Below are positions 10,274-55,883 of a stretch of 64,000 nucleotides of DNA, one piece after another. Under the pieces are notes generated by a model that worked only from the letters and a program-made list of their open reading frames with translations, was not told the DNA's origin and ran no database searches. The first letter of the stretch is position 1; each line of letters starts with the position of its first letter. This stretch comes from Patescibacteria group bacterium (GTDB lineage Bacteria; Patescibacteriota; Dojkabacteria; GCA-002793355), in the NCBI GenBank assembly GCA_016860985.1, contig BOKM01000001.1, positions 463,462-527,461 of the forward strand, written 5' to 3'. A program made the translations under genes and the position numbers.

Positions 10274-10293
10274 ATTGGACCAATTGTTCAAAG

Positions 10294-10699
10294 TGGAGGT
10301 GAGGGGAATCGAACCCCTGTTCAGCTATTCTAAAAAAGAAGTTTCTCCCAAAACAGTCTGAGTTGTTTACGAGATTATGCCTAAAAATCAGACAAAAAAG
10401 CATAACCCGCCCACACAAATACGATTCTGGCAACTCAGCGGAACTAGCGGCCAGTCGGCATGAACTTTCTTACTCCTGGCTCTCCGCTTGTCATGCGAAG
10501 GAGGAAAAGCCAGTTACGTCGAAATTAGACGTATGAGAATTGCATTGCTGGAGAAACAGCTTTGAGGGCTGAGTTCACGAACGATGCGATTTTCTCAGAA
10601 AGGGTTTGTTTGGCACTTTATGTGCTTTGATAGTTTAACGGGATATCAGCCCGTTTGGCTACTTCTTTCAACGAACAACCGTCTAAACCGATCACCCCC
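10294..10699 (-). ncRNA. ssrA: tmRNA (SsrA), one-piece
   Basis: The minus-strand RNA begins GGGGGUGAUCGGUUUAGACGG and ends GGGGUUCGAUUCCCCUCACCUCCA. The acceptor stem GGGGGUG/CACCUCC contains a G3:U70 pair followed by discriminator A, and CCA is not encoded. A PK1-like hairpin (ACGGG/CCCGU) is present. A TGaTATAAT box (hexamer at 10716-10721) lies upstream. Confidence 0.9.
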
Positions 10700-16997: not shown

Positions 16998-19900
16998 TTA
17001 CTCCGCAATATCTAACTCTTTAAGCATCTTACCCGTCCAACTCCTTGGATTTCGTCTAATGTCACCTATTGTGCCTGTCGCTACGATTTCTCCACCACCA
17101 GTTCCACCTTCGGGACCTAAATCGATGAGATAGTCAGCTTCCGCGATAAAGTCGAGGTTATGTTCAATTACAAAAACACTATTCCCTGTCGCAACTAAGG
17201 TTTTTAATACTGCTACCAGTTTCTCAATATCTGCAAAATGCAGACCAGTAGTTGGTTCATCAAGGATGTAGATTGTTTTACCTGTCGAACGCCTTCCAAG
17301 TTCTGCTGATAACTTCACTCTTTGTGCCTCTCCACCCGACAACATTGGGGCTGGCTCTCCAAGCTTCAAATAGCCAAGCCCTACTTGCTGAAGCATTTCG
17401 AATTTTTCTCGAATCATCGAGATTTCTGAAAAGAAAGCAGCAGCTTCATCTACCGACATATCCAACACATCTGCAATATTCTTTCCTTTGTACAACACTT
17501 CTAGAACCTCAGACACATATCGCTTACCGTGACAAACATCACAGTCAATATACACATCGGGCATAAACTGCATTTCGATCTTTATCTTACCCTCTCCTTT
17601 ACAGGCTTCACAACGACCACCTTTCAGGTTGAAACTAAAGCGACTTGCGGTGTAACCTCGCACTTTGGAATCCTTTGTTTGAGCAAAAAGTTCTCGAATA
17701 TCGTCGAAAACCTTTGTGTATGTTGCAGGATTACTTCTTGGTGTTCTACCAATTGGCGACTGATCAATGTAAAGGAGCTTGTCAATAACATCCGATACGT
17801 ATAGGTTTCTGTATTCTGTGTCGGGGCTATCTGTTCTCAGACCAAGAGTCTTTTTGATAGCAGGCAACAAGGTTTCCACCACAAGGGAGCTCTTTCCTGA
17901 ACCTGAAACACCAGTTATTGCAACAAATTTTCCGAGCGGAAACTTAACCGTTACATCTTTTAGATTGTGTGTTTTTGCCCCAGAAAGCTCTAAATACCGG
18001 TCAGCTACGCGCATTCGGGCATGTGACGCAAGAGCATCGTTTAATTTTTTGTTCTTACCAAGCCCTAACTTCACGAGTTTTTCGACTTCTTTTGCAATTG
18101 TTTTCTTACCAGCTAAGTACGGGCCAGTTACAGATTCGGGGTTGTCCATAATCTCTTTTGGCGTACCCATAGCAACGATTTTTCCTCCACGATCTCCTGC
18201 ACCCTTACCAAAATCAAGTACAAGATCTGCATTCATCATGGTATCTCTGTCGTGCTCAACAACGATCACAGTATTTCCCAAATCACGAAGATGCTTTAAT
18301 GTCGCGATTAATCGATGTTGATCTCGTGCATGCAGCCCAATCGAAGGTTCATCTAGTACGTAAATTACCCCCGAAAGGCCTGTTCCAATCTGACTCGCAA
18401 GGCGAATTCGCTGTGCTTCTCCACCAGAAAGCGTAGTTGCAGTTCTACTCACGGTTAAGTATTCAAGCCCCACGTCTAATAGAAATTGCGAACGAAGGAG
18501 GATTTCTCGAATTACTGGTTGTGCAATTGTCTGAGCTTTTGAATCAAATTCTTTAATAAATCCCTTGGTCTCATCTGTAAACTCTTTGATGGTTAAATCG
18601 CAAAGCTGGGAGATATTTAGATTATTAATGGTTACCGCAAGCACAATATCTTTAAGCCTTGTTCCTTTACAAGTTGGGCACGTAACCGTACTCATAAACT
18701 TCTCAATTTCGGTTCGAATAAAATCTGAATTTGTTTCTTTATACCTGCGCTCTAAGTTCGGAATTATCCCCTCGTATTTGGCATGAAGCGAGCGTTCTGT
18801 TCCGTCTTGGCTCGAAAAGTACGTTACTTTGTACTTTTGATCTCCCGTTCCGTAAAGAATCAGGTGTAATTTACCCTCAGTAAGCATACTCACTGGCGTA
18901 TGAATCGAAATAGTGTGTGCATCACAGACTAGTTCAAGCAACCTTCTAAAGTAAGAATCTCTCTCAAGCATTTTTGCGTACGGCATGATGCCACCTGCAA
19001 GTATCGAACGCTTTCCGTCGATAATTCCCTCTGTTGATATCTTCTTTATAACGCCAAGTCCATCACATTCAGGGCAGGCACCGTGTGGGGAATTAAAGGA
19101 AAAATCTCTAGGTTCAAGATCAGGAACAGAAATACCGCATTTTTTACAACTTTTGGTAACGCTATAATCGTGGGAAAGTACTGAGGTTGGACGAGCAGGT
19201 ATTCCCGGTTGTGGATCTCTTATTTCTAAAATTCGAACAAAGGTTGGTTGAATTTTAAGTGCGGCCTCAACTGATTGAAATATTCTTGAGCGCATTTCTT
19301 TTAGCGCTTCTTCTGAATCAAAGAGCGTTTTGCTCACACTTAAGGTGTCGACTACTACTTCTATTTCGTGTTGCTTGTACTTGTCGAGCTGTGGCAACAT
19401 TAATTTCAAGTCAATATATTCACCATCAACTCGAACAACATTCCACCCCTGTTTTCGCAAGTTCATAAATACCTGCTCATATTCACCTTTTCTTCCAGAA
19501 ATTGGAACTGCGGTAATCATAAAGCGGAACCCAAATTTTTGAGTATTTTTATCGTTTTCGTATTCGCGTTTTATCTTCTGCAATAAACCATCTACTACCT
19601 GGTCAATTGTTTGGGAGGTAAGTACCGCCCCACATTGTGGACAATGCGCAACACCGACTCTCGCGTACAACAATCGTAGGTAATCATAGATCTCGGTGAT
19701 TGTACCAACAGTCGAACGAGGATTATGTGATACCGTTTTCTGGTCAATAGCTATAGAGGGTGACAATCCTTCAATTTTATCGACATCTGGCTTACGTAGT
19801 TCACCCAAGAATTGCCTTGCATATGCAGATAAGCTCTCCACATATTTTCGCTGGCCTTCGGCATAAATGGTATCCATTGCAAGTGAGCTCTTGCCAGACC

Positions 19901-20000
19901 CCGACAAGCCAGTAAAAACAATCAACTTGTTTTTTGGGATATCGACGTCAATATTCTTGAGATTGTTCTCGCGCGCACCGCGAATCGAGAGAAAGTCCAT
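16998..20000 (-). CDS. uvrA: Excinuclease ABC subunit A
   Basis: 1000 aa. '[55 protein letters not shown]', two ABC modules and zinc-finger CxxC pairs. Confidence 0.97.
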   Translation of the reverse strand: [1000 protein letters not shown]

Positions 20001-29072: not shown

Positions 29073-30425
29073 ATGTCAAACTTATCAGTAGACGAGCGAA
29101 TTGCTCTCATAAAATCCATCACCGAAAATGGTGGAGAGTTCATCGGCGAAGATGAACTAGAAAAGGTCCTTACCTCTGGAGAGCAACTCTATACGTACGA
29201 TGGGTTCGAACCCTCTGGCCAAATGCATATTGCACAAGGAATTATCCGCGCAATTAACGTTAATAAGATGATTGACGCTGGCTTCACTTTTAGAATGTGG
29301 GTAGCTGACTGGTTCGGTTATTTGAATAACAAAATGGGCGGCGATTTAGAGAAAATAAAAACTGTTGGTCGCTATTTTGTTGAGATTTGGAAAGCAAGCG
29401 GCATGAATCTTGATAAAACAGAATTCCTTTGGACCTCAGATTTTGTTGGCCAGCGATGGTACTGGGAATTGGTTATGAAGATAGCCAAGGCAGTTACCCT
29501 CAAACGTGCGCTTAGAACAACTGCAATTATGGGGCGGACCGAAAGTGACGATCTTTCCGCTGGTCAAATCTTTTATCCGTGCATGCAAATTGCTGACATA
29601 TTCGGTGTTATGAATGCGCAAGTTACACAACTTGGGCTTGATCAGCAAAAAGTAAACGTTCTTGCTCGAGAAATAGGAGAAGAATTAGGTTACTGGAAAC
29701 CCGTAATTGTGAGCCATGGTATGTTGCAAGGATTGCAAAAGCCAGAAGACAAAAAACGAACAGTTATCTCAACCAACAATTTTATGGCTCAAGAACTGAT
29801 TTACAAAGGGAGTAAAGCTTCTATTGTAGTTCAAGGAAGAGAAGAAAACTGCATAACCCTCAGTTTTGTTAATACAAAACAAGACGTACTACGAACCGAA
29901 GATGTGTCCACAGAAAAAAGTATAAAGTACTTCGATTTGCAGATTACATTACACACCAATGGCGAGCTCGAAATACTCGAGAATACTCCAGAAAGAATGA
30001 TATCCATGAAGATGAGTAAATCAAAACCAGACACCGCCATCTTTATGACCGACACCTCAGAAGAAGTTCAGCGCAAAATTATGAAGGCATACTGTCCAGA
30101 AGGAATAATCGACGACAATCCCGTACTTGATTATTGCAAACAAATCATTTTTAACGCTCACTATCTAAAACGCGAAAATCCACTTCTGAAAGACGGGGTG
30201 TTCGAGATTAAGCGAAAACCAGAGTTCGGTGGAGATATCACCTTTGCATCGTATCAGGTACTTGAAAAAGCATATGCAGATAAACAAGTGTACCCACTTG
30301 ATCTAAAGAATACCGTTATTGAGTACTTGAATGCATTATTGCAACCAGTACGAGATCATTTTGAAAACAATGCCGAGGCAAAAGCACTTCTTGAACAGGT
30401 GCGTAGCTTTCAAGTATCACGCTAA
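29073..30425 (+). CDS. tyrS: Tyrosyl-tRNA synthetase, archaeal/eukaryotic type, with ~90-aa insertion before KMSKS
   Basis: It aligns by eye with M. jannaschii TyrRS: 'YDGFEPSGQMHIAQG', 'IFYPCMQIADIF', 'KMSKSKP', 'KAYCPEG..DNPVL' and 'KRKPEFGGD'. TATAAT lies 5 nt upstream of the ATG. Confidence 0.9.
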   Translation: MSNLSVDERIALIKSITENGGEFIGEDELEKVLTSGEQLYTYDGFEPSGQMHIAQGIIRAINVNKMIDAGFTFRMWVADWFGYLNNKMGGDLEKIKTVGRYFVEIWKASGMNLDKTEFLWTSDFVGQRWYWELVMKIAKAVTLKRALRTTAIMGRTESDDLSAGQIFYPCMQIADIFGVMNAQVTQLGLDQQKVNVLAREIGEELGYWKPVIVSHGMLQGLQKPEDKKRTVISTNNFMAQELIYKGSKASIVVQGREENCITLSFVNTKQDVLRTEDVSTEKSIKYFDLQITLHTNGELEILENTPERMISMKMSKSKPDTAIFMTDTSEEVQRKIMKAYCPEGIIDDNPVLDYCKQIIFNAHYLKRENPLLKDGVFEIKRKPEFGGDITFASYQVLEKAYADKQVYPLDLKNTVIEYLNALLQPVRDHFENNAEAKALLEQVRSFQVSR

Positions 30426-31202: not shown

Positions 31203-33257
31203 CTAGCTTTTAAGATTTTTTATAAGTTCACGTAGTTCAATTGCTTTTTCAAAATTCAGGGACATCGCTTCTTTCTTCATCTCTTTTGTTAACCAATCAA
31301 TTGTGGATTTTTGCTCTTTTTTGGGCATAGTGCGGTACGAAGCAGTCATAATTTCGATATCTTTCCCAAGCATTGTATGGATCTTCTTCTCGCGTGCTAC
31401 ATCTGTTTCTTCTTCAATTTTTGGCAATATACGTTCTCTGATTGCTTTGTGGATAGATTGTGGAGTAATTCCCATCTTCTGGTTATACTCTAACTGTGCC
31501 TTTCGGCGTCTTTCTACTTCAAAGAGCGCTTCTTGCATACTGTGAGTTGTATGGTTCGCGTACAAAATGACTCGTCCTTCTACGTGCCTTGCTGCTCTCC
31601 CCATTGTTTGGATTAAACTTGTTCTGGAGCGCAAAAAACCTTCTTTATCCGCATCAAGAATTGCAACCAACGAAACTTCCGGCAAGTCCAAGCCTTCACG
31701 CAACAGGTTAATTCCTACCAAAACATCGTAATTACCTGCTCTTAGGTCAGAAAGAATATCAGTTCTGTCCATCGTATCGATATCAGAGTGCAAGTAGGTC
31801 ACCCTTACTCCACCTTCTTTTAGATACTCAGACAAGTCTTCTGCCATCCGTTTTGTCATTGTGGTAACCAGTACGCGTTCTTTTTTGGCAATTGTCGTTT
31901 TAATTTCAGTTACCAAATCCTGGATCTGATTTTCGGCAGGACGTACCTCAACAACCGGATCAACGATGCCTGTAGGTCTAATGAGTTGCTCTGCAACGTT
32001 CTCTTTTCCTGCTTTTTCCATTTCATATTCTTCCGGTGTTGCCGAGAGAAACACTGTATACCCCATTCGGTCTTCGAATTCAGGAAACCGCAAGGGTCTG
32101 TTCTCTTTTGCCGAAGGAAGGCGAAAGCCATAGTCTATAAGATTTTGCTTTCTTGCTTGGTCACCATTGTACATGCCTCTGATCTGAGGAACAGTCATAT
32201 GTGATTCATCAATAACCAGCAAGTAGTCTTTTGGAAAATAGTCCATTAGTGAATATGGCGGGTCACCAAGCTGTCGGCCATCAAAGTAATAGGAGTAGTT
32301 TTCAATGCCTTTGCAATATCCAATTTCGCGAATCATTTCTAAATCATATTGAACCTTTTGCTTTAATCGGTGAGCTTCTATCAATTTTCCTTGAGATTCG
32401 AACTCTTTAACTCGTTTTGCCGTATCTTGTTGTATCCTTTCTATTGCTTGCTGCTGAAGTGCCTCGTCCATTACATAGTGCTTCGCGGGGTACAAGACTA
32501 CTTTTTTAATCGCTTCGCCTTCTGTTTCTAGCAACATGTCGATATAGTACGAATAGTCTGTGATAACTGCTCCATCTATTGGGTTAAATAGCTCTAAAGA
32601 AGAAACCTCGTCACCCAAGTATGTGACTCGAACACCAATATCTGCATATGAAATGTAAATATCAACAGAATTACCCCTAATTCGAAAGGTTCCTCTTTTA
32701 AAGTCGATATCGTTTCGTTCATAATACAAGTTGACTAACTGTGCTTGCAGCTTTTGTGGACCATTTCCTTTTCCAACTTCAACCAGTGCCATCGCATTTT
32801 TATACGTTTTTGGTGAACCAAGGTTGTAAATTGCCGATACTGACGCGATAACAATTGCATCCTCTCTTGTCATTAATGCAGTAGTTGCAGCCAGTCGGAG
32901 TTTATCAATTTCTTCATTAATATCCGAGTCTTTTTCAATATACAAGTCACGCTGAGGAATATACGCCTCTGGTTGATAGTAGTCGTAGTAACTAACGAAG
33001 TAATGAACAGCATTTTTAGGAAAAAACTCTTTAAACTCTTGGTACAACTGCGCCGCGAGTGTCTTGTTGTGAGAAATAATCAGGGTCGGTTTTTGAACAC
33101 GCTGAATAAGATTTGCCACTGTAAAGGTTTTTCCGCTACCAGTCACTCCGAGTAATACTTGTGAATGTTGACCGTTACCGACTCCTGCAACTAGTTTTTC
33201 TATTGCCGTAGGCTGGTCACCCATCGGACTATATTGTGCAGAGAGTTGGAACTTCAT
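31203..33257 (-). CDS. uvrB: Excinuclease ABC subunit B
   Basis: 'GDQPTAIEKL', 'LLGVTGSGKTFT', helicase motifs and a C-terminal UVR motif. 684 aa. Confidence 0.97.
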   Translation of the reverse strand: MKFQLSAQYSPMGDQPTAIEKLVAGVGNGQHSQVLLGVTGSGKTFTVANLIQRVQKPTLIISHNKTLAAQLYQEFKEFFPKNAVHYFVSYYDYYQPEAYIPQRDLYIEKDSDINEEIDKLRLAATTALMTREDAIVIASVSAIYNLGSPKTYKNAMALVEVGKGNGPQKLQAQLVNLYYERNDIDFKRGTFRIRGNSVDIYISYADIGVRVTYLGDEVSSLELFNPIDGAVITDYSYYIDMLLETEGEAIKKVVLYPAKHYVMDEALQQQAIERIQQDTAKRVKEFESQGKLIEAHRLKQKVQYDLEMIREIGYCKGIENYSYYFDGRQLGDPPYSLMDYFPKDYLLVIDESHMTVPQIRGMYNGDQARKQNLIDYGFRLPSAKENRPLRFPEFEDRMGYTVFLSATPEEYEMEKAGKENVAEQLIRPTGIVDPVVEVRPAENQIQDLVTEIKTTIAKKERVLVTTMTKRMAEDLSEYLKEGGVRVTYLHSDIDTMDRTDILSDLRAGNYDVLVGINLLREGLDLPEVSLVAILDADKEGFLRSRTSLIQTMGRAARHVEGRVILYANHTTHSMQEALFEVERRRKAQLEYNQKMGITPQSIHKAIRERILPKIEEETDVAREKKIHTMLGKDIEIMTASYRTMPKKEQKSTIDWLTKEMKKEAMSLNFEKAIELRELIKNLKS

Positions 33258-38066: not shown

Positions 38067-39866
38067 CTATACTGCAAAGTTTCCAACTTCTGCCTCTGTT
38101 ACTTCTGCAAGATCTTCTCCTTTCATGGTAATTGAACATGTCTGCATACCTGCGTTAAACGACACCTGTTCGAGTTGCGCAATAGCGCTATCCATGTACA
38201 CTTTCATGCCCAAAAGATTGCCAAAAGGAGGGACTCCCCCAACTTTAATACCATAGGTCGCGAGAATGTTCTCTGGCTTCTCAAACTCTGCTTTTTCTCC
38301 AATGGCGGCAGTTACTGCTTCAAAGGATATTTTTTTATCGCCTGGAATAACTACCATAACCGGAGTATTGGTCTTTTTTCCAGAAAGAATAAGCGCCTTT
38401 GCTCCATTAGAGAGAGATGTTCCTCGAAGCGCTGCGGCCTCTTCACTTGTTCGCACAGCTTCGTGTTCAGAAAATTCGTATGCAACTGCACGGCTATCAA
38501 GTATTTTTTTAATTTTTGCCACAACTTCCTTATCAGAACCAAGCTTTTCCTTGATTCTATTTGCACCTGCGATTCTCTTGAGATCAGAAGGGAATAAGGT
38601 TGCCTCTCGGATATTTTGCAAGTTGAACAACTTCATGGTTAATCGCTCAAGTCCAAAAGAAAATCCTGCCTCTGAAGGCATTCCGTATTTAAAGGCTTGG
38701 AAATAGTGCTCGTAATACGCTTCAGACAAGCCTTGCTCTTTAAATCTTTCGAAAAGCTTTTCGTATTCGTGGATACGATGGGTACCTGAAAGCATTTCAA
38801 GACCTCTAAACTCAAGGTCAAAGCTAAGAGATTCCGAAGCTTCTTCTGGGTTATCCCATGTATAAAAGTTTTTGTTGCTTTTAAAGTTTACAACCCACAG
38901 AAAATCTGAACCTTTTTCCTCTAATGCCCACTTGCTAATCTCACGCTCGTCTTCCGGATCGAGGTCTAACTCCTCTCGTTCTGCTGACTTTCCGATTCTT
39001 CTTTCTATAATCTCCAAAGCTTCTCGAACTTTTATTTTCGGAAATCGACCATTTGGTAATTTGGGAAGCTCAACCCCATACAAGGCGAACACATCTTTTG
39101 AGGTCTCCACTACACCATCAACAATATGTCGAATAACATTTTCAGCAATCTGCATGGCCTCGTCGTAATTATCAATAAAGCCCATCTCCGCATCCATTTG
39201 CGTGAGTTCCATTATGTGGCGGGTAGTATTATGCTTCTCTGCTCGAAAAACGGGACCGACACAGAAAGCGCGTTCAAAGGCTGTAACCATAATTTGCTTA
39301 TAAACCTGTGGCGACTGCGCCAAATATGCTTTTCCTTCAAAGTAGTTCACTTCAAAAACACTTGCACCACTTTCAGACGGAGCACTCATAATTACCGGTG
39401 ACTTAAATTCGGTAAAACCTTGAGAGCGTAGAGATTCCGCAAACTTTTGTAAAATAACCGCTTGTACTTTAAAAATTGCTTGTTTTTTAAGATTTCTTAG
39501 CACCAAAGGTCTGTAATCCAACTCTGTGTCGATATTGACATCAATTGATTTTTTGTTGTACGAAACCGGTGGAACTTCCTTAATTGGGACCTTTATTTCG
39601 ACCGTAGGGTTAACTACTTCAACACCAATATCTGTTGAGTCAGTTTTTTTTACCGTTCCCACAACACGAACAACACTTCCGGGTTGCAACGACGCTAATT
39701 CTTTTAACGTATCTTTATTATCAACAACTACCTGAACTAAGCCACCTCGATCACGAACAATCAAGAAACCGAGTTTGCCTAACTCACGAAAGTTATGAAG
39801 CCACCCATCAAGGCGTACTTCTTTGCTCTCATATCCAGAGAGCTCTGTTGAAATAATACGTTCCAT
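38067..39866 (-). CDS. aspS: Aspartyl-tRNA synthetase (archaeal-type class IIb) fused to a C-terminal YbaK/ProX-like aminoacyl-tRNA editing domain
   Basis: OB-fold N-terminus, 'FRAEKHNTTRHIMELTQMDAEM', 'GFSFGLERL' and the core ending 'REATLFPSDLKR'. An extra ~155 aa then follow, with 'KALIL', 'VVIPGDKKISF' and 'GIKVGGVPPFG' of the tRNA_edit family. Confidence 0.85.
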   Translation of the reverse strand: MERIISTELSGYESKEVRLDGWLHNFRELGKLGFLIVRDRGGLVQVVVDNKDTLKELASLQPGSVVRVVGTVKKTDSTDIGVEVVNPTVEIKVPIKEVPPVSYNKKSIDVNIDTELDYRPLVLRNLKKQAIFKVQAVILQKFAESLRSQGFTEFKSPVIMSAPSESGASVFEVNYFEGKAYLAQSPQVYKQIMVTAFERAFCVGPVFRAEKHNTTRHIMELTQMDAEMGFIDNYDEAMQIAENVIRHIVDGVVETSKDVFALYGVELPKLPNGRFPKIKVREALEIIERRIGKSAEREELDLDPEDEREISKWALEEKGSDFLWVVNFKSNKNFYTWDNPEEASESLSFDLEFRGLEMLSGTHRIHEYEKLFERFKEQGLSEAYYEHYFQAFKYGMPSEAGFSFGLERLTMKLFNLQNIREATLFPSDLKRIAGANRIKEKLGSDKEVVAKIKKILDSRAVAYEFSEHEAVRTSEEAAALRGTSLSNGAKALILSGKKTNTPVMVVIPGDKKISFEAVTAAIGEKAEFEKPENILATYGIKVGGVPPFGNLLGMKVYMDSAIAQLEQVSFNAGMQTCSITMKGEDLAEVTEAEVGNFAV

Positions 39867-45899: not shown

Positions 45900-46382
45900 C
45901 TAGTAACCAGTACAAGGAATCTGAACACTCCGGCTTACGGTTCCACCTGCAGCAACCGCGCTACTTGCCCCAATACCCTTAGAATTTCCAACTTTTTTAC
46001 CATATGCATCGTAGGCTGTTACGGTTTGAATTGCCATTGCTCGCCCTTTGTACGTTGTTTTTAACTGGTGAGTAAAGCTACTCGGAACGGCAGTCTTTTT
46101 GAATGAGGTTGTGGAGGAACCCCATTGAACGGATGTACTATCGGCATTAACCCATTTTGAATACACGGTGTAGGAAGCTATTTTCGAATTGCATCCAGTT
46201 TTGTTCAGGGTAGGTTTAACTTGCACATTATAGTAATACGTTGTTGCAGCCTCTGGTTCTACCTCAAATAAAGGATTTTGCACCACATACACTAGTCCAA
46301 ACATAGCGACAACCGACACAAATACGCCAAGAAACAACTTCAAGCTATTTTTCTTTGTAAAAGTGAATGTTTTTGCTTTCAT
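45900..46382 (-). CDS. Small secreted/anchored hypothetical protein
   Basis: 160 aa with an N-terminal hydrophobic segment 'LKLFLGVFVSVVAMFGLVYVV' followed by a beta-rich domain. Confidence 0.55.
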   Translation of the reverse strand: MKAKTFTFTKKNSLKLFLGVFVSVVAMFGLVYVVQNPLFEVEPEAATTYYYNVQVKPTLNKTGCNSKIASYTVYSKWVNADSTSVQWGSSTTSFKKTAVPSSFTHQLKTTYKGRAMAIQTVTAYDAYGKKVGNSKGIGASSAVAAGGTVSRSVQIPCTGY

Positions 46383-50852: not shown

Positions 50853-52673
50853 CTAGATTCCTTTTAACTCATCGACGGTTGTTGCCTGTTCCGCCTTCTT
50901 TTCCCTGAATTTTTTAAACCTTGGAAAGCGAAGTGCATAACCTGAAGAATGAAGGGGGCTTTTGGTTATTTCGTCTGCTTCGACTTCTACTACAAGCGAG
51001 GGCAATAAATAAACATCTGGAGTGAGCGACTTAGGAATAACTACATTATCCAGTTTTCTATCGGTCTTTACCTCGTCACAGGCTGCTTTAATGATTTTCC
51101 ATTGCTCGTGTGTAACCCCCGTGCCTATTTTTGTTACGGTTAGGTACTCATCTGTCTCTCGGTTATAAACAGCAGCAAGCAGTGCACCGATACCAAATTG
51201 GGCGAGTTTTCCTTCTCCGCGATAATAACCTACCAAAACGATATCAACCGTATCTGCGAGTTCTTTTTTCATCGCTTTTTTATATTTTAACCAATCAAAG
51301 TTACGCGTTCCTGGAGTATAAATAGATGACGTATCCTTAAAAATGACTCCCTCTAAACCCTCTGCCACATATTCAAGGAAAAGTTTTTCCGCCTCAGCAA
51401 CATCTTTTGGATAATGAATTGGAGTTTTAACAATTGTACGTTGAACCTCCTGATTTTCGTCGAGAAAAGTTAAGAGTTCTTTTCGAACTGAAAGTGATTT
51501 GTCCATCAAATTTTCATTATTTACCAAAAGAATATCAAAAGAGAAGACTTTAACAGGAACTTCGTTTGCTGCACCTTCTACCCCGTGTTTCCGCTTGCGA
51601 GTCATTGTTTGTTGGAAAGGAAGATACTCCTGAACGATATCATTGTAACCGATGACTTCACCATCGAGCACAATGGATTCAACAGAGACACCGTGCTTTT
51701 TTTCATACTGCAGTGGAAGCTTCTTTGCTGCTTCTACGACTTCGGGGAACATTTCGGTCATATTTTCGAGATTGCGGGAAAAAAGCATAACTGAGTAATC
51801 CTCTTTTTCATTCTGTTCTGGTTGAGAAAAAAGGCTAAGATTCGCTTCTTTTGACTTATCTTCGTGTGAAAAGTATGGTTGCCAAACTCTTTCTGCATAG
51901 ACGTTTTCAAGAACCTTTTCTTTGAATACGTGGAGTTGTATTCGCAAACCGTCATATTTTGGCTCTTCAATTGGCTCTGGAATTCTTTTGTAGATAGACT
52001 CGATTGAATCTTCACGTTCAACCAGCTTTGCTGAGACAGGAATTCCTGGTGAAAATACTGATCGTTCCGGGGCTGCTTCGCCATACTTTAGAGAGAGATA
52101 CACTGTATGCCCAATATCTGAACAATTCGCAAACAGCTTTTTTAGCTCGTCATTTTTTGTCCCCTGTAATGCGCCGAGTGCCTCAAGTATGGTTCTTTCG
52201 CTTGCTCCAAGCCGAAGTTTGCTGTTCACAATTCGCAGTGTATACTTGCCCGCTAGAGGTGAGCATCTTTTTAGCAGATTAATTAGTAATTCTTGTTTCT
52301 TTGCCTGTGAGCCTGTCCCTTTGGTTTTTGCAACATCCCACAAGAGAGAGTAGTAGTCGAGTAGGGTAAGGTCAGTCTCTTGTTTTGGTGCGTAGGCCTC
52401 CCATACTGAACCGATATCACCATATGTGGTTAAATCTTGCACAACATCTTTACCCAAGAGTGTTTCGACAACAGTTCGCAACGTTTTATCAGACAATTGA
52501 AACTCAACCGCAATAAATTCAGGGACAATTCTTCCTATTATCAAATATGCCGTAATTGCACCTTCTTCAGGGGTTGCCTGACGGAAATAATCAGTTAAAA
52601 GGGCCTGCATTTCGAGTCTTTTTGGTGTTTTCTCAATTGCCGAAAATAATTCCATTACTGTTGTCAGTTGCAT
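50853..52673 (-). CDS. lig: ATP-dependent DNA ligase (archaeal/eukaryotic Lig1-like, with N-terminal DNA-binding domain)
   Basis: Adenylation motif I 'EPKYDGLRIQ', 'MLFSRNLE', 'LDGEVI' and an OB domain 'VDIVLVGYYRGEGK'. Start ATG 52673 has TGgTACAAT 5 nt upstream. Confidence 0.88.
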   Translation of the reverse strand: MQLTTVMELFSAIEKTPKRLEMQALLTDYFRQATPEEGAITAYLIIGRIVPEFIAVEFQLSDKTLRTVVETLLGKDVVQDLTTYGDIGSVWEAYAPKQETDLTLLDYYSLLWDVAKTKGTGSQAKKQELLINLLKRCSPLAGKYTLRIVNSKLRLGASERTILEALGALQGTKNDELKKLFANCSDIGHTVYLSLKYGEAAPERSVFSPGIPVSAKLVEREDSIESIYKRIPEPIEEPKYDGLRIQLHVFKEKVLENVYAERVWQPYFSHEDKSKEANLSLFSQPEQNEKEDYSVMLFSRNLENMTEMFPEVVEAAKKLPLQYEKKHGVSVESIVLDGEVIGYNDIVQEYLPFQQTMTRKRKHGVEGAANEVPVKVFSFDILLVNNENLMDKSLSVRKELLTFLDENQEVQRTIVKTPIHYPKDVAEAEKLFLEYVAEGLEGVIFKDTSSIYTPGTRNFDWLKYKKAMKKELADTVDIVLVGYYRGEGKLAQFGIGALLAAVYNRETDEYLTVTKIGTGVTHEQWKIIKAACDEVKTDRKLDNVVIPKSLTPDVYLLPSLVVEVEADEITKSPLHSSGYALRFPRFKKFREKKAEQATTVDELKGI

Positions 52674-52712
52674 ACAGGATTGTACCACTAGCAGCCGAAA
52701 TTGCCGTAGTAT

Positions 52713-52741
52713 TTTACTTACACACTGCCACGTTATATAAT
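52713..52741 (+). promoter_or_regulatory. Candidate promoter for the ileS leader (-35 TTTACT, 17-nt spacer, -10 TATAAT)
   Basis: TTTACT at 52713-52718 and TATAAT at 52736-52741. It lies upstream of the T-box leader. Confidence 0.35.
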
Positions 52742-52747
52742 TACTCA

Positions 52748-52946
52748 GTACGCATTGACCCAGCAATCACTGGTGAGCGTCAGGAAGAAATGCACATTAG
52801 CATTGTAGAACCTGTCGGCGACCTCCGAACCAACTGGTTAAGCCATTTAGGCTAAGGGATACAAAAACGTATCTGAACGAGGGTGGTACCGTGAGCTAAA
52901 TCACTCACCCCTCTATAGGGATTTGCATTAATTTACTATAGAGGCC
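52748..52946 (+). promoter_or_regulatory. T-box leader (translational type) controlling ileS
   Basis: Canonical T-box core GAGGG-UGGUACC-GUGAG...CUCAC-CCCUC at 52879-52913. Stem III-like hairpin at 52857-52874. An alternative 9-bp helix (52910-52918 with 52936-52944) ends 2 nt before the AUG and has no U-tract. A candidate AUC-A specifier is at 52766-52769. Confidence 0.8.
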
Positions 52947-55883
52947 ATGGCACACAACGAATTTACACTCCCGAATGTCCGCAATTTTTACACTGACGTC
53001 GAACAACCTATTCTATCGTTTTGGAAAGAGAACAAAATCTTCGAAAAATCAGTAGATCAGCGCAGTGACAAGGATCGATTTGTATTCTACGACGGTCCTC
53101 CCTTTGTTACTGGTTTACCCCATTATGGGCACTTGCTTGCGAGCGTACTCAAAGACATCGTCCCTCGTTACCAAACAATGAAAGGCAAGAAAGTCGAGAG
53201 ACTCTGGGGTTGGGATTGTCACGGCATTCCAATTGAAGAGATGGTCGAAAGAAAATACAAAACAAAGAACCGAAGAGAAATCGAATCACGGGTTGGCATC
53301 AAAGAGTTTATAGAAGCCTGTGCGTCATATGTCACCGATGTTTCGGGAGAATGGGAGTGGTATATCGACAGAATCGCGCGCTGGGTCGATATGAAAAAAC
53401 CATACAGAACAATGGACCTTTCCTACATGGAAACAGTGATGTGGGTGTTTAAGCAATTCTACGAAAAAGGGTTAGTCTATAAAGGAAAACGCGTTTCTTT
53501 GTACTGCACCCGCTGTGGTACGCCTCTCTCAAACTTTGAAATCGCTATGGACAACTCGTACCGAGACCTTGAAGATCCTTCAGTATTTGTGAAATTCCCC
53601 GTCAAAGATGAAAAGAATACCTACATACTCGCATGGACAACAACACCATGGACTCTTCCGGCAAACAGTGCGTTGGTAGTTAATCAAGAGGCAGATTATG
53701 TAAAAGTAAAATCCGGCACCGATTCTATGTACCTTGCAAAAGCTCTCGTAGAAAAAGTCTTTAAAGATTTAGAATACACGGTAGAAGACGAAGTAAAAGG
53801 AGCAGCATTGATTGGGCTACATTACGAACCATTATTCAACTACTTTACTGCAGGGGAGCATGATTATCAGGTTTATCACGCAGATTTTGTCAGCATGGAA
53901 GAAGGTACAGGAATAATCCACATGGCTCCTGGATTTGGTGAGGACGACACTGCGCTCGGAAAGCAAATCGGGTTATCCATGCACGAAACAATCGACGACG
54001 AAGGAAGGCTTATACCCGAAGTTACTGATTATGCAGGCAAGTACTTTAAAGAAGCCGATCCATTTATCTCCGAAGACTTAACAAAGCGAGGTCTTATGCT
54101 AAAAGCGGAGCGAATCGTTCACAGTTATCCTATCTGTCACCGATGCAAAACACCTCTTGTTTATAAAGCACAGGACTCTTGGTATGTGAATATCCAGCAA
54201 ATTAAGGACCAACTCTACAAAAACAACGAAAATATCAACTGGATTCCAGAACATATCAAACACGGAAGATTTGAAGATGCGATTAAAACCTTCCCAGATT
54301 GGGGTATTTCAAGAACTCGTTATTGGGCAACTCCGATGCCAATTTGGGAATGTGACTCCTGTGACCACCAGGAAGTGTTAGGCTCAGTAGCAGAAATTGA
54401 AGAGCGATCAGGCAAAAAAGTTACAGACCTTCATCGTCCATACATAGATGAGCATACGTACGCTTGTAAAAAGTGTGAGAAAGGAACAATGAAGCGTGTC
54501 GCAGAGGTTGTTGATAGCTGGTTGGAATCAGCCTCCATGCCGTTTGCGCAATTCCACTATCCCTTTGAAAACAAAGAAAAGTTTGAAGCCAACTTCCCCG
54601 GTGATTTTATTACCGAATACGTGGGGCAAACGAGAGCTTGGTTTAACGTGATGCACGTGGTTTCAACTATACTTTTCGGTACAAATGCCTTCAACAATGT
54701 AATCTGCACAGGCGTTATCAAAGGAACCGATGGCCAAAAAATGAGTAAAAGCCTTGGCAACTACCCAGACCCTCGAGGTGTTATCGAAAAATACGGTGGC
54801 GACGCATTCAGACTCTATATTGCAGGAAGCGTATTACCATTAGGTGAGGACTTGAACGTTTCTGAAGAATCAATATCTGCCCCCGGAAAAGAGATTCTCA
54901 TGCCACTAATGAATACATACAAGTACTTTGCGTTATACGCCAATCAACATACCTTTGCTTTTGACCAAAATGCAAAATCGGAGCATGTACTCGATAGGTG
55001 GATTCTTGCACGTGTTAATTCTGTTGTTAGAACAATAGATTCAATGATTGCCGGATATACACTTCCAAAGGCAATTGCAGAGATTAAGCCCCTTGTAGAC
55101 GACATTTCCACTTGGTACATCCGAAGATCCCGAGATCGTTTTGTTGAGGGTGATAACAATGCATTGCAAACGTTATATCAAGTACTTCTTCTTGTGGTTA
55201 CCGCAATAGCACCAATCTCACCGTTTATAGCAGAGTATCTTTACCAAGAGTTAAAACGTGCGTTACCTACAGACCTTCAACAGGAATCAGTGCACCTACT
55301 CCTTTTCCCGTCACTTGCAGAGCAAACTGCAGAAGAACAATCAGTCCTAGCAACAATGGAACTTGCACGAAAGGCTGCATCGCTTGGGCAAAGTATTCGA
55401 GTAGAAAAAGCAATTGCACTCAAACAACCGCTTAGCCAAATGTTAGTTAATACAAAGGAGAAGCTCACAGCAGAATACCTAGACCTTTTATCAGAAGAGC
55501 TTAATGTTCAGGAGACACTCGCCGTGACCGAATTAACAGAAAAAGAGTTTTTGGCGGTTAAGAAAGATCAAGGAATAGAAGTCGGCTTAAATCTCGAAAT
55601 TACACCAGAACTTGCAGAAAAAGGGTTACTTCGCGAAGTGACAAGAGCGATCCAAGCCTCAAGAAAGAATGCTTCTCTCCAAATCGGGCAACATGCAAAG
55701 GTGCGAATTTTCACAGAAAGTACCGCAATCAAGGAACTTGTTGCAAAATACGGCACAGAGCTAAAGCAGGGAACACTCCTCGAAAGCATCGATACCGTTC
55801 AGCAACCACTTGGTGAAAACGCATTTACAGCAGCTGTAGGGCCACAGAAAGAGCAATTATCCATTGAAGTCACGCCACTTTAG
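52947..55883 (+). CDS. ileS: Isoleucyl-tRNA synthetase (type 2, eukaryote-like)
   Basis: 'PPFVTGLPHYGHLL' (HIGH), 'GQKMSKSLGN' (KMSKS) and a CP1 editing region. 978 aa. Confidence 0.96.
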   Translation: MAHNEFTLPNVRNFYTDVEQPILSFWKENKIFEKSVDQRSDKDRFVFYDGPPFVTGLPHYGHLLASVLKDIVPRYQTMKGKKVERLWGWDCHGIPIEEMVERKYKTKNRREIESRVGIKEFIEACASYVTDVSGEWEWYIDRIARWVDMKKPYRTMDLSYMETVMWVFKQFYEKGLVYKGKRVSLYCTRCGTPLSNFEIAMDNSYRDLEDPSVFVKFPVKDEKNTYILAWTTTPWTLPANSALVVNQEADYVKVKSGTDSMYLAKALVEKVFKDLEYTVEDEVKGAALIGLHYEPLFNYFTAGEHDYQVYHADFVSMEEGTGIIHMAPGFGEDDTALGKQIGLSMHETIDDEGRLIPEVTDYAGKYFKEADPFISEDLTKRGLMLKAERIVHSYPICHRCKTPLVYKAQDSWYVNIQQIKDQLYKNNENINWIPEHIKHGRFEDAIKTFPDWGISRTRYWATPMPIWECDSCDHQEVLGSVAEIEERSGKKVTDLHRPYIDEHTYACKKCEKGTMKRVAEVVDSWLESASMPFAQFHYPFENKEKFEANFPGDFITEYVGQTRAWFNVMHVVSTILFGTNAFNNVICTGVIKGTDGQKMSKSLGNYPDPRGVIEKYGGDAFRLYIAGSVLPLGEDLNVSEESISAPGKEILMPLMNTYKYFALYANQHTFAFDQNAKSEHVLDRWILARVNSVVRTIDSMIAGYTLPKAIAEIKPLVDDISTWYIRRSRDRFVEGDNNALQTLYQVLLLVVTAIAPISPFIAEYLYQELKRALPTDLQQESVHLLLFPSLAEQTAEEQSVLATMELARKAASLGQSIRVEKAIALKQPLSQMLVNTKEKLTAEYLDLLSEELNVQETLAVTELTEKEFLAVKKDQGIEVGLNLEITPELAEKGLLREVTRAIQASRKNASLQIGQHAKVRIFTESTAIKELVAKYGTELKQGTLLESIDTVQQPLGENAFTAAVGPQKEQLSIEVTPL

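Follow-up and report, generated by a model that had tools for sequence, protein, structure and literature searches.

The question raised by this locus is how expression of ileS, the gene for an isoleucyl-tRNA synthetase (IleRS), is controlled in a Patescibacteria group bacterium, and what part is played by the structured leader that precedes it. The locus lies in a stretch of 64,000 nucleotides (nt) of contig BOKM01000001.1 (assembly GCA_016860985.1), called the window below; coordinates refer to this stretch unless a relative is named. The coding sequence of ileS (52947..55883, plus strand) specifies a class I aminoacyl-tRNA synthetase of IleRS type, 978 amino acids (aa) long, in which a domain search found tRNA-synt_1, Anticodon_1 and, as the C-terminal domain, DUF5915; its homologues in a large protein collection carry the source name isoleucine--tRNA ligase. 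Judged from its sequence and covariation, the ileS leader (52748-52946) is a T-box. We regard it as probable that the ileS mRNA starts at about 52748 with a T-box leader of about 200 nt, which would read the charging of tRNA-Ile(GAU) and gate the start region.

At the gathering thresholds of Rfam the whole window gave no T-box, a tmRNA being the sole report. In E-value mode, RF00230 matched 52746-52915 within the 401 nt from 52600 to 53000 (37 bits, E=8e-7), and the alignment covers the K-turn (kink-turn), Stem II, the F-box region, Stem III and the T-box/antiterminator, with 74 distal Stem I positions deleted. Relatives were retrieved with the IleRS protein, which gave 160 loci (80 genome loci from species representatives and 80 metagenome loci, cited by L numbers). 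Almost all bear the label Patescibacteria, Saccharibacteria, Microgenomates or Parcubacteria, the nearest relatives of the window by IleRS are Patescibacteria/Saccharibacteria, and many of the loci carry GGNUGGNACC just upstream of ileS. A MAFFT alignment of leaders (alignment A1, not to be confused with helix A1) analysed with RNAalifold yielded only Stem II and the antiterminator; it was replaced by a trimmed alignment with a hand-drawn structure of Patescibacteria ileS leaders, from which a covariance model (R1) was built. R1 matched the window exactly once, and it matched 38/80 genome loci and 33/80 metagenome loci, every match being on the strand of ileS and upstream of the gene, so that about 44% of the 160 sampled Patescibacteria loci have a T-box upstream of this gene. 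A second model (R2) was rebuilt from 40 other Patescibacteria leaders, the window being left out to remove circularity. On the 64-kb window it gave a single match, on the ileS strand upstream of ileS (52751-52915, 65.7 bits, E=1.7e-14).

Covariation was measured in two alignments. The first comprises the window and 70 distant Patescibacteria relatives and was fitted to the model: 93.8% of its cells pair, whereas shuffles give 65.4% and slid partners no more than 48%, both sides have changed in 26/29 pairs, and the covariation score is 0.694 versus 0.217. The second was drawn from closer relatives found in the large protein collection (96, 87, 87, 77, 75, 74, 74, 60 and 59% IleRS identity). Six of them, L161-L166 (74-96% identity), form the close clade and are not part of the 71-leader alignment. 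Since the L162 and L163 leaders are identical, this clade provides five distinct sequences, and the close-clade alignment (A5) contains six: the window, L161, L162, L164, L165 and L166. In A5, 95.6% of cells pair versus at most 41% with slid partners, and 13 pairs show double changes versus 5.5 +/- 1.6 in shuffles; L161-L166 score 47-70 bits with R2. Other Patescibacteria leaders scored 35-54 bits with RF00230, below the gathering score of 93 (seven tested, two not reported), which explains why Patescibacteria T-boxes are unannotated. An earlier note on this DNA, made by reading the sequence, had called the element a T-box and placed helices A1 and A2, the bulge, Stem III, the alternative helix and the AUC-A motif. 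All these positions are exact on the sequence, and RF00230, R2 and the covariation in the 71 leaders and in the close clade bear out the identity. The elements are the following.

52713..52741, plus strand: promoter-like site, -35 TTTACT (52713-18), 17-nt spacer, -10 TATAAT (52736-41), 10/12 matches.
52748-52946, plus strand: T-box leader of ileS, between the promoter-like site and AUG 52947.
52751-52779, plus strand: ultrashort Stem I, from the RF00230 alignment, sequence reading and clade covariation.
52751-53/52777-79, plus strand: C-stem of Stem I, CGC/GCG, covarying CG/AU/GC in the close clade.
52757-58 and 52775-76, plus strand: K-turn GA motifs at the base of Stem I, aligned to the Rfam GA motif.
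52760-63/52770-73, plus strand: Stem I helix CCAG/CUGG, from sequence reading.
52766-68 and A52769, plus strand: specifier AUC followed by A, in the Stem I terminal loop CAAUCA; AUC-A invariant in the close clade.
52781..52814, plus strand: Stem II, in which an S-turn-type internal loop (AAGA / GUAGAA) separates the lower helix CAGG/CCUG from an upper helix with its loop.
52816-18/52825-27, plus strand: Stem IIA, CGG/CCG, invariant.
52820-23 with 52836-39, plus strand: IIB pseudoknot, loop GACC with GGUU, from clade covariation.
52825-30, plus strand: F-box-like CCGAAC.
52841..52853, plus strand: extra hairpin AGCC-AUUUA-GGCU in the linker that joins the pseudoknot to Stem III, from clade covariation.
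52857-74, plus strand: Stem III, GGAUAC-AAAAAC-GUAUCU, covarying in L165 and L166.
52854..52878, plus strand: region of the purines flanking Stem III, AAGGG (RRRxG motif, 52854-58) and AA (52876-77).
52879..52913, plus strand: antisequestrator A1/bulge/A2, from RF00230, R2 and 71-leader covariation.
52879-83/52909-13, plus strand: helix A1, GAGGG/CCCUC, 5 base pairs (bp).
52884-90, plus strand: T-box bulge UGGUACC, 7 nt.
52891-95/52904-08, plus strand: helix A2, GUGAG/CUCAC, 5 bp.
52910..52944, plus strand: sequestrator hairpin, CCUCUAUAG/CUAUAGAGG plus inner helix GAUU/AAUU.

The decoding end of the leader is small. The AUC-A motif had been assigned to a hairpin at 52757-81; it does lie in a loop closed by CCAG/CUGG, and the structure is better drawn as a Stem I from 52751 to 52779 with a K-turn and a C-stem. 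The predicted K-turn layout, in which the kink is read from the sequence, is CGC-AUU-GA...GA-GCG. The likeness to the short Stem I of Actinobacteria, also proposed earlier, is reinforced by the deletion of the 74 distal RF00230 positions and by the position of the specifier in the terminal loop. The AUC-A specifier is present in nearly all 71 aligned leaders, and the gene downstream is that of IleRS. Beyond Stem I, the S-turn signature GAA...UAGA of Stem II is invariant in alignments A2 and A5, and the lower helix of Stem II shows compensatory changes in the 71-leader and close-clade alignments. The IIB pseudoknot covaries in the close clade (AU to GC, CG to UA) and is found at the same position with a different sequence in distant relatives; a crude shuffle test on the 71 leaders was weakly positive or marginal (4.2 versus 3.8 contiguous pairs), and support for IIB is taken from the close-clade covariation, not from this test. 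The linker hairpin shows compensatory changes in the close clade (GC/CG/AU and CG/UA); it is missing from most Patescibacteria relatives, L132 having an analogous insertion. Around Stem III, the purine region UAAGGGAU, which corresponds to the RRRxG-Stem III-AA motif defined in PMC7583486, is invariant in A5.

The discriminator is equally recognizable. The sequence AGGGUGGUACCGUG at 52880-93 agrees at 13/14 positions with the T-box consensus AGGGUGGNACCGCG (quoted in PMC11297988), and A1 and A2 both covary across the 71 leaders; compensatory changes in A2 and Stem III are also seen in the close clade. From the UGGU of the bulge, A73 is predicted in the cognate tRNA-Ile.

The output end of the leader is a helix that abuts the start codon. 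CCUCUAUAG (52910-18) can pair with CUAUAGAGG (52936-44), which is followed by CC and then by AUG 52947. As had been noticed, nucleotides 52910-13 (CCUC) are common to this helix and to A1, and no U-tract follows it. The alternative helix has a free energy of -12.8 kcal/mol, compared with -2.8 +/- 1.7 for shuffled sequences, none of 5000 of which reached this value. A terminator scan of 52500-53100 found no intrinsic terminator-like site. A U-run lies 6-43 nt after A1 in 70 of the 71 aligned leaders (that of L012, missed by the automatic scan, was counted by eye), and the window is the sole leader without one. L161-L166 similarly lack a U-tract, and all six keep CUCUAUAG...CUAUAGAG, ending 2-4 nt before AUG; both strands are conserved, while the loop and inner helix diverge. 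Folding of 52854-52965 gave -27.6 kcal/mol for the OFF state (sequestrator) and -21.3 kcal/mol for the ON state (antisequestrator enforced). Of the five other clade leaders that were folded, four had a gap of 5.6-6.7 kcal/mol and L164 one of 2.1 kcal/mol. An advantage of about 6 kcal/mol for the OFF state is as expected for a switch stabilized by tRNA. What the ON state frees is exactly GAGG, CC and AUG (52941-46 plus AUG). The lack of a U-tract or terminator, together with an A1-overlapping helix beside AUG that six relatives keep, supports a predicted output of the translational class, the class that the earlier note had named; the greater stability of the OFF state in folding points the same way.

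The leader promoter places the predicted transcript start near 52748, and its -10 TATAAT is invariant in A5. Because the helix contains a GAGG, masking of a Shine-Dalgarno (SD) sequence had been implied as the means of control. We reject it: this GAGG is only 2 nt from AUG and reads GAGA in 4/6 close relatives (3/5 distinct leaders), so that it is not to be read as an SD, and a motif scan of the window genes found only few, scattered SD-like motifs with no preferred spacing. Typical Saccharibacteria relatives, by contrast, have AAGGAG before ileS. A TATAAT-like box (at least 5/6 positions) lies 5-9 nt upstream of the start in 19 of 52 window genes, at 5-6 nt in 15 of these 19, with no other offset in more than two genes. 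Such a sharp peak 5-6 nt before starts is a signature of leaderless mRNAs. The genome of the window thus appears SD-poor and largely leaderless, and ileS is among the small number of window genes that have a leader. Leaderless-type examples are 16998-20000 (minus), 29073-30425 (plus), 31203-33257 (minus), 38067-39866 (minus) and 45900-46382 (minus). Given this context and the poor conservation of GAGG, the switch most likely occludes the start region structurally, rather than masking an SD.

In the mechanism that we propose, the AUC in the terminal loop of the ultrashort, K-turn-bearing Stem I would pair with the anticodon of tRNA-Ile. The NCCA 3' end of an uncharged tRNA would pair with UGGU of the bulge and, with Stem III and the purine string, lock A1/A2. 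Without this lock, CCUC of A1 would pair with GAGG to give a hairpin of 9+4 bp (52910-52944) that would keep the ribosome off the start region; with the antisequestrator formed, 52941-46 and AUG would be free, with a weak residual hairpin left. Direct support comes from the anatomy, the homology, the covariation of the sensing domains, the conservation of the alternative helix and the absence of a terminator; that tRNA binds, that charged and uncharged tRNA are told apart and that translation responds is what we infer.

Several observations weigh against this proposal. The RF00230 score of 37 bits lies below the gathering score of 93, so that the RF00230 search, which the earlier note had proposed as a check, detected the element by E-value and not by score. 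The A2 closing pair, G52891-C52908, is G-C in 6/6 clade members, whereas the 3'-aminoacyl group is described as being sensed sterically mainly by a G.U wobble at this place, and charge discrimination may therefore differ; in the 71-leader alignment this pair is GU in 22, AU in 17, UA in 16 and GC in 15. The Stem I loop has 6 nt if a G-C pair closes it, versus 7 nt (YUAUCAN) in most relatives, although L132, L044 and L036 also have a 6-nt AUAUCA-type loop, and GGGUGGUA. In the close clade the sequestrator is conserved without any compensatory change, and that of L165 has a G.G mismatch in its middle, offset by a 7-bp inner helix. The ON state keeps a weak hairpin (about -3.5 kcal/mol) 6 nt upstream of AUG. 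ARAGORN found no tRNA in the window, and no tRNA-Ile in loci L001-L060. Finally, ileS is leaderless and has no T-box platform in L167 (74% IleRS identity), L001 and L081 (63-64%), and L168 and L169 (59-60%).

These five T-box-less relatives show that the T-box is dispensable in the wider clade. L001 and L081, which have no leader, are the two closest species representatives by IleRS. In each case TATAAT or TAAAAT is followed by 5-6 nt and then by ATG (L001:2985-3005, L081:2488-2504, L167:24-41, and just upstream of 1501 in L168 and L169); for L167 only 38 nt of upstream sequence precede the contig end. A single family-level clade thus contains ileS genes with a T-box leader and leaderless ones. 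The expectation that relatives would carry the element upstream of ileS holds for L161-L166 and for the 70 distant relatives and fails for several relatives at 59-74% IleRS identity. In the window, TACTAT (52934-39) occupies the place of the TATAAT of the T-box-less relatives. The IleRS of the L001 sister clade (P0008-P0014, P0016 and others; for example the L001 gene 3001-6399) is about 1120-1135 aa long and has a further domain, NUDIX (PF00293), probably C-terminal, which is absent from the 978-aa protein of the window.

The leaderless relatives invite the reading that the leader is a decaying relic, a T-box that was inherited but has lost its regulatory role, ileS being effectively constitutive and the lineage heading to the leaderless form. 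The T-box-less genes of L001, L081, L167, L168 and L169 (TATAAT, 5 nt, ATG), the favouring of leaderless genes in the genome of the window and the G-C instead of G.U closing pair of A2 are consistent with it. We find it improbable, as the core motifs are all intact (K-turn GA, AUC-A, S-turn, IIA, RRRxG...AA and 13/14 T-box bases), compensatory changes maintain the helices across 74-96% IleRS identity, and the -10 of the promoter is conserved, as are both strands of the alternative helix. The same leaderless genes bear on a different proposal, that of a dual input, in which TACTAT would act as a weak internal promoter 7 nt before ATG and add a leaderless basal ileS mRNA; CUAUAGAG would then be conserved in part as a promoter. 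The distance from hexamer to ATG in the clade (6-8 nt) resembles the genome-wide TATAAT peak (mainly 5-6 nt, few at 7-9 nt), and the T-box-less relatives have TATAAT exactly there. However, TACTAT matches at only 4/6 positions and has neither a TG extension nor a -35 at 17 nt, L164 has GACTAT and L165 AACTAG at the same place, and the 5' partner UAUAG (52914-18) is also conserved, which a promoter does not explain. A dual input is therefore unlikely; TACTAT may represent either a promoter inside the leader or an intermediate in evolution, and we count it as a minor rival of the T-box switch or an addition to it.

Transcriptional attenuation, in which the hairpin 52910-52944 would itself terminate transcription or leave the nascent RNA open to Rho, deserves consideration because a hairpin followed by a U-tract is used by the 70 distant relatives, and GGGAUUU (52919-25) resembles the 3' end of their terminators (AAGGGAUUUUU). 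In the window, however, the hairpin is followed by CCAUGGCAC and not by a U-run; the first U-run comes 72 nt after A1, within the coding sequence and with no strong hairpin upstream. With no terminator-like site found and the U-less layout kept in six relatives, we judge attenuation very unlikely. We thus retain a T-box that would gate the start region as the preferred reading of the leader.

The distant relatives differ from the window in their output. In the 70 distant leaders the T-box ends in a hairpin and a U-tract, whereas the window clade sets the helix against AUG. In about 43 of the 70, the terminator is formed by the 3' strand of Stem III and a segment after A1: the strand before the U-tract pairs with the loop and 3' strand of Stem III, directly 5' of A1. 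A1, the bulge and A2 are thereby nested inside the terminator, and the competition would be between Stem III and the terminator. Cognate strands of nested terminators pair with -13.6 kcal/mol versus -7.1 kcal/mol for non-cognate combinations. Examples are L031:2845-2939, L024:2845-2935, L057:1931-2027 and about 40 other loci, mostly of Saccharibacteria type. About 12 other loci (L044, L036, L132 and others) have the canonical terminator that overlaps A1. The window's module for decoding and its discriminator are like those of other Patescibacteria ileS T-boxes (L031, L022, L132, L044), and L132, L044 and L036 share with the window an alternative helix that overlaps A1 in the canonical way. Some loci (L004, L007, L011, L014, L016, L018 and others) are labelled 'uncultured Gammaproteobacteria' or 'Bdellovibrionales' and encode an IleRS that resembles Patescibacteria; L011 and L018 also have Patescibacteria-type ileS T-boxes. 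These labels of metagenome-assembled genomes are probably wrong, and conflicting taxon labels were not relied on.

The closest known systems are the translational ileS T-boxes of Actinobacteria, described in Mycobacterium tuberculosis, M. smegmatis and Nocardia farcinica (PDB 6UFG and 6UFM, cited in PMC7583486), with which the window was compared through published descriptions. Both regulate ileS and have the specifier AUC in the terminal loop above a K-turn, in an ultrashort Stem I without the distal platform for the tRNA elbow. In actinobacterial T-boxes Stems II and IIA/B compensate for the absent platform. The order of elements is also the same (Stem II with S-turn, IIA/B pseudoknot, linker, Stem III with purines, A1/7-nt bulge/A2), as is the size to the end of A1 (165 nt in the window, 166 nt in the M. 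tuberculosis construct). Neither has a terminator, and in both the alternative helix takes the 3' strand of A1; that of Actinobacteria blocks the ribosome-binding region. The window differs by its Patescibacteria host, its SD-poor, mostly leaderless genome with no conserved SD to be sequestered, its extra covarying linker hairpin, the G-C closing pair of A2 and the 6-nt specifier loop. With canonical transcriptional T-boxes (RF00230; Bacillus tyrS/glyQS type) it shares the 14-mer (13/14), the UGGN bulge, A1/A2, Stem III, the K-turn, Stem II, the F-box region and a mutually exclusive downstream helix built on the 3' strand of A1; it has no long Stem I (74 model positions missing) and no U-tract.

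According to the TBDB preprint, the ancestral range of T-boxes comprises Firmicutes, Actinobacteria, Chloroflexi and Deinococcus-Thermus, and the translational model is confined to Actinobacteria. A search of the full-text literature, Rfam full-hit lists and subscription papers being outside its scope, found no link of T-boxes to Saccharibacteria, Patescibacteria or the candidate phyla radiation (CPR). The remark of the earlier note that the lineage is an unusual one for T-boxes agrees with this result and with the Patescibacteria/Saccharibacteria affiliation of the relatives. Absence from the searchable literature is no proof that Patescibacteria T-boxes are undescribed. As far as sequence comparison can tell, the element appears to be a known kind of T-box in an apparently undocumented phylum, with some variant features.

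It is possible, and we put it forward tentatively, that control of ileS by T-boxes is ancestral and widespread in Patescibacteria/CPR and was overlooked because the scores fall below the Rfam threshold, with two output designs that are apparently undescribed. In one, that of the window clade, the T-box would gate translation of a leadered mRNA by occlusion of the start region alone, in an SD-poor, mostly leaderless genome; in the other, that of most Saccharibacteria relatives, a nested terminator would set the decision between Stem III and the terminator. The presence of T-boxes upstream of ileS in about 44% of the sampled loci extends their range to a phylum-level radiation with tiny genomes and few known regulators, all of whose elements described here are missed at the current Rfam gathering score. 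Patescibacteria are described as taking critical nutrients from host bacteria, and a sensor of uncharged tRNA-Ile would be among their few direct read-outs of nutrient supply. Within a single family, the window clade also shows a change from transcriptional output to a predicted translational one, and as its genome hardly uses SD sequences it offers a natural test of regulation by start-site structure alone.

The upstream neighbour of ileS (50853-52673, minus strand), divergent from it, encodes an ATP-dependent DNA ligase with the three domains of the archaeal/eukaryotic type (DNA_ligase_A_N/M/C). The coding sequence really begins at ATG 52673 (minus strand), which gives 606 aa, the length called in relatives. 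With this start, the intergenic region of 273 nt houses both promoters and the leader, with no coding overlap. The divergent ligase/ileS arrangement is kept in all close relatives that have upstream sequence. A 99-aa open reading frame that overlaps the leader (52556-52855, plus strand) was dismissed, as it is antisense to the 5' end of the ligase gene and lies inside the structured RNA.

Two other features of the window were observed. The gene 38067-39866 (minus strand) encodes a class II synthetase of Asp/Lys/Asn type fused to a C-terminal YbaK-like editing domain (PF04073); it lacks a T-box, and its layout (TATAAT, 5 nt, ATG) is the leaderless one. The tmRNA at 10291-10699 (minus strand), not reported by ARAGORN, matches RF00023 with 92 bits and has a large insertion in the region of the tag reading frame.

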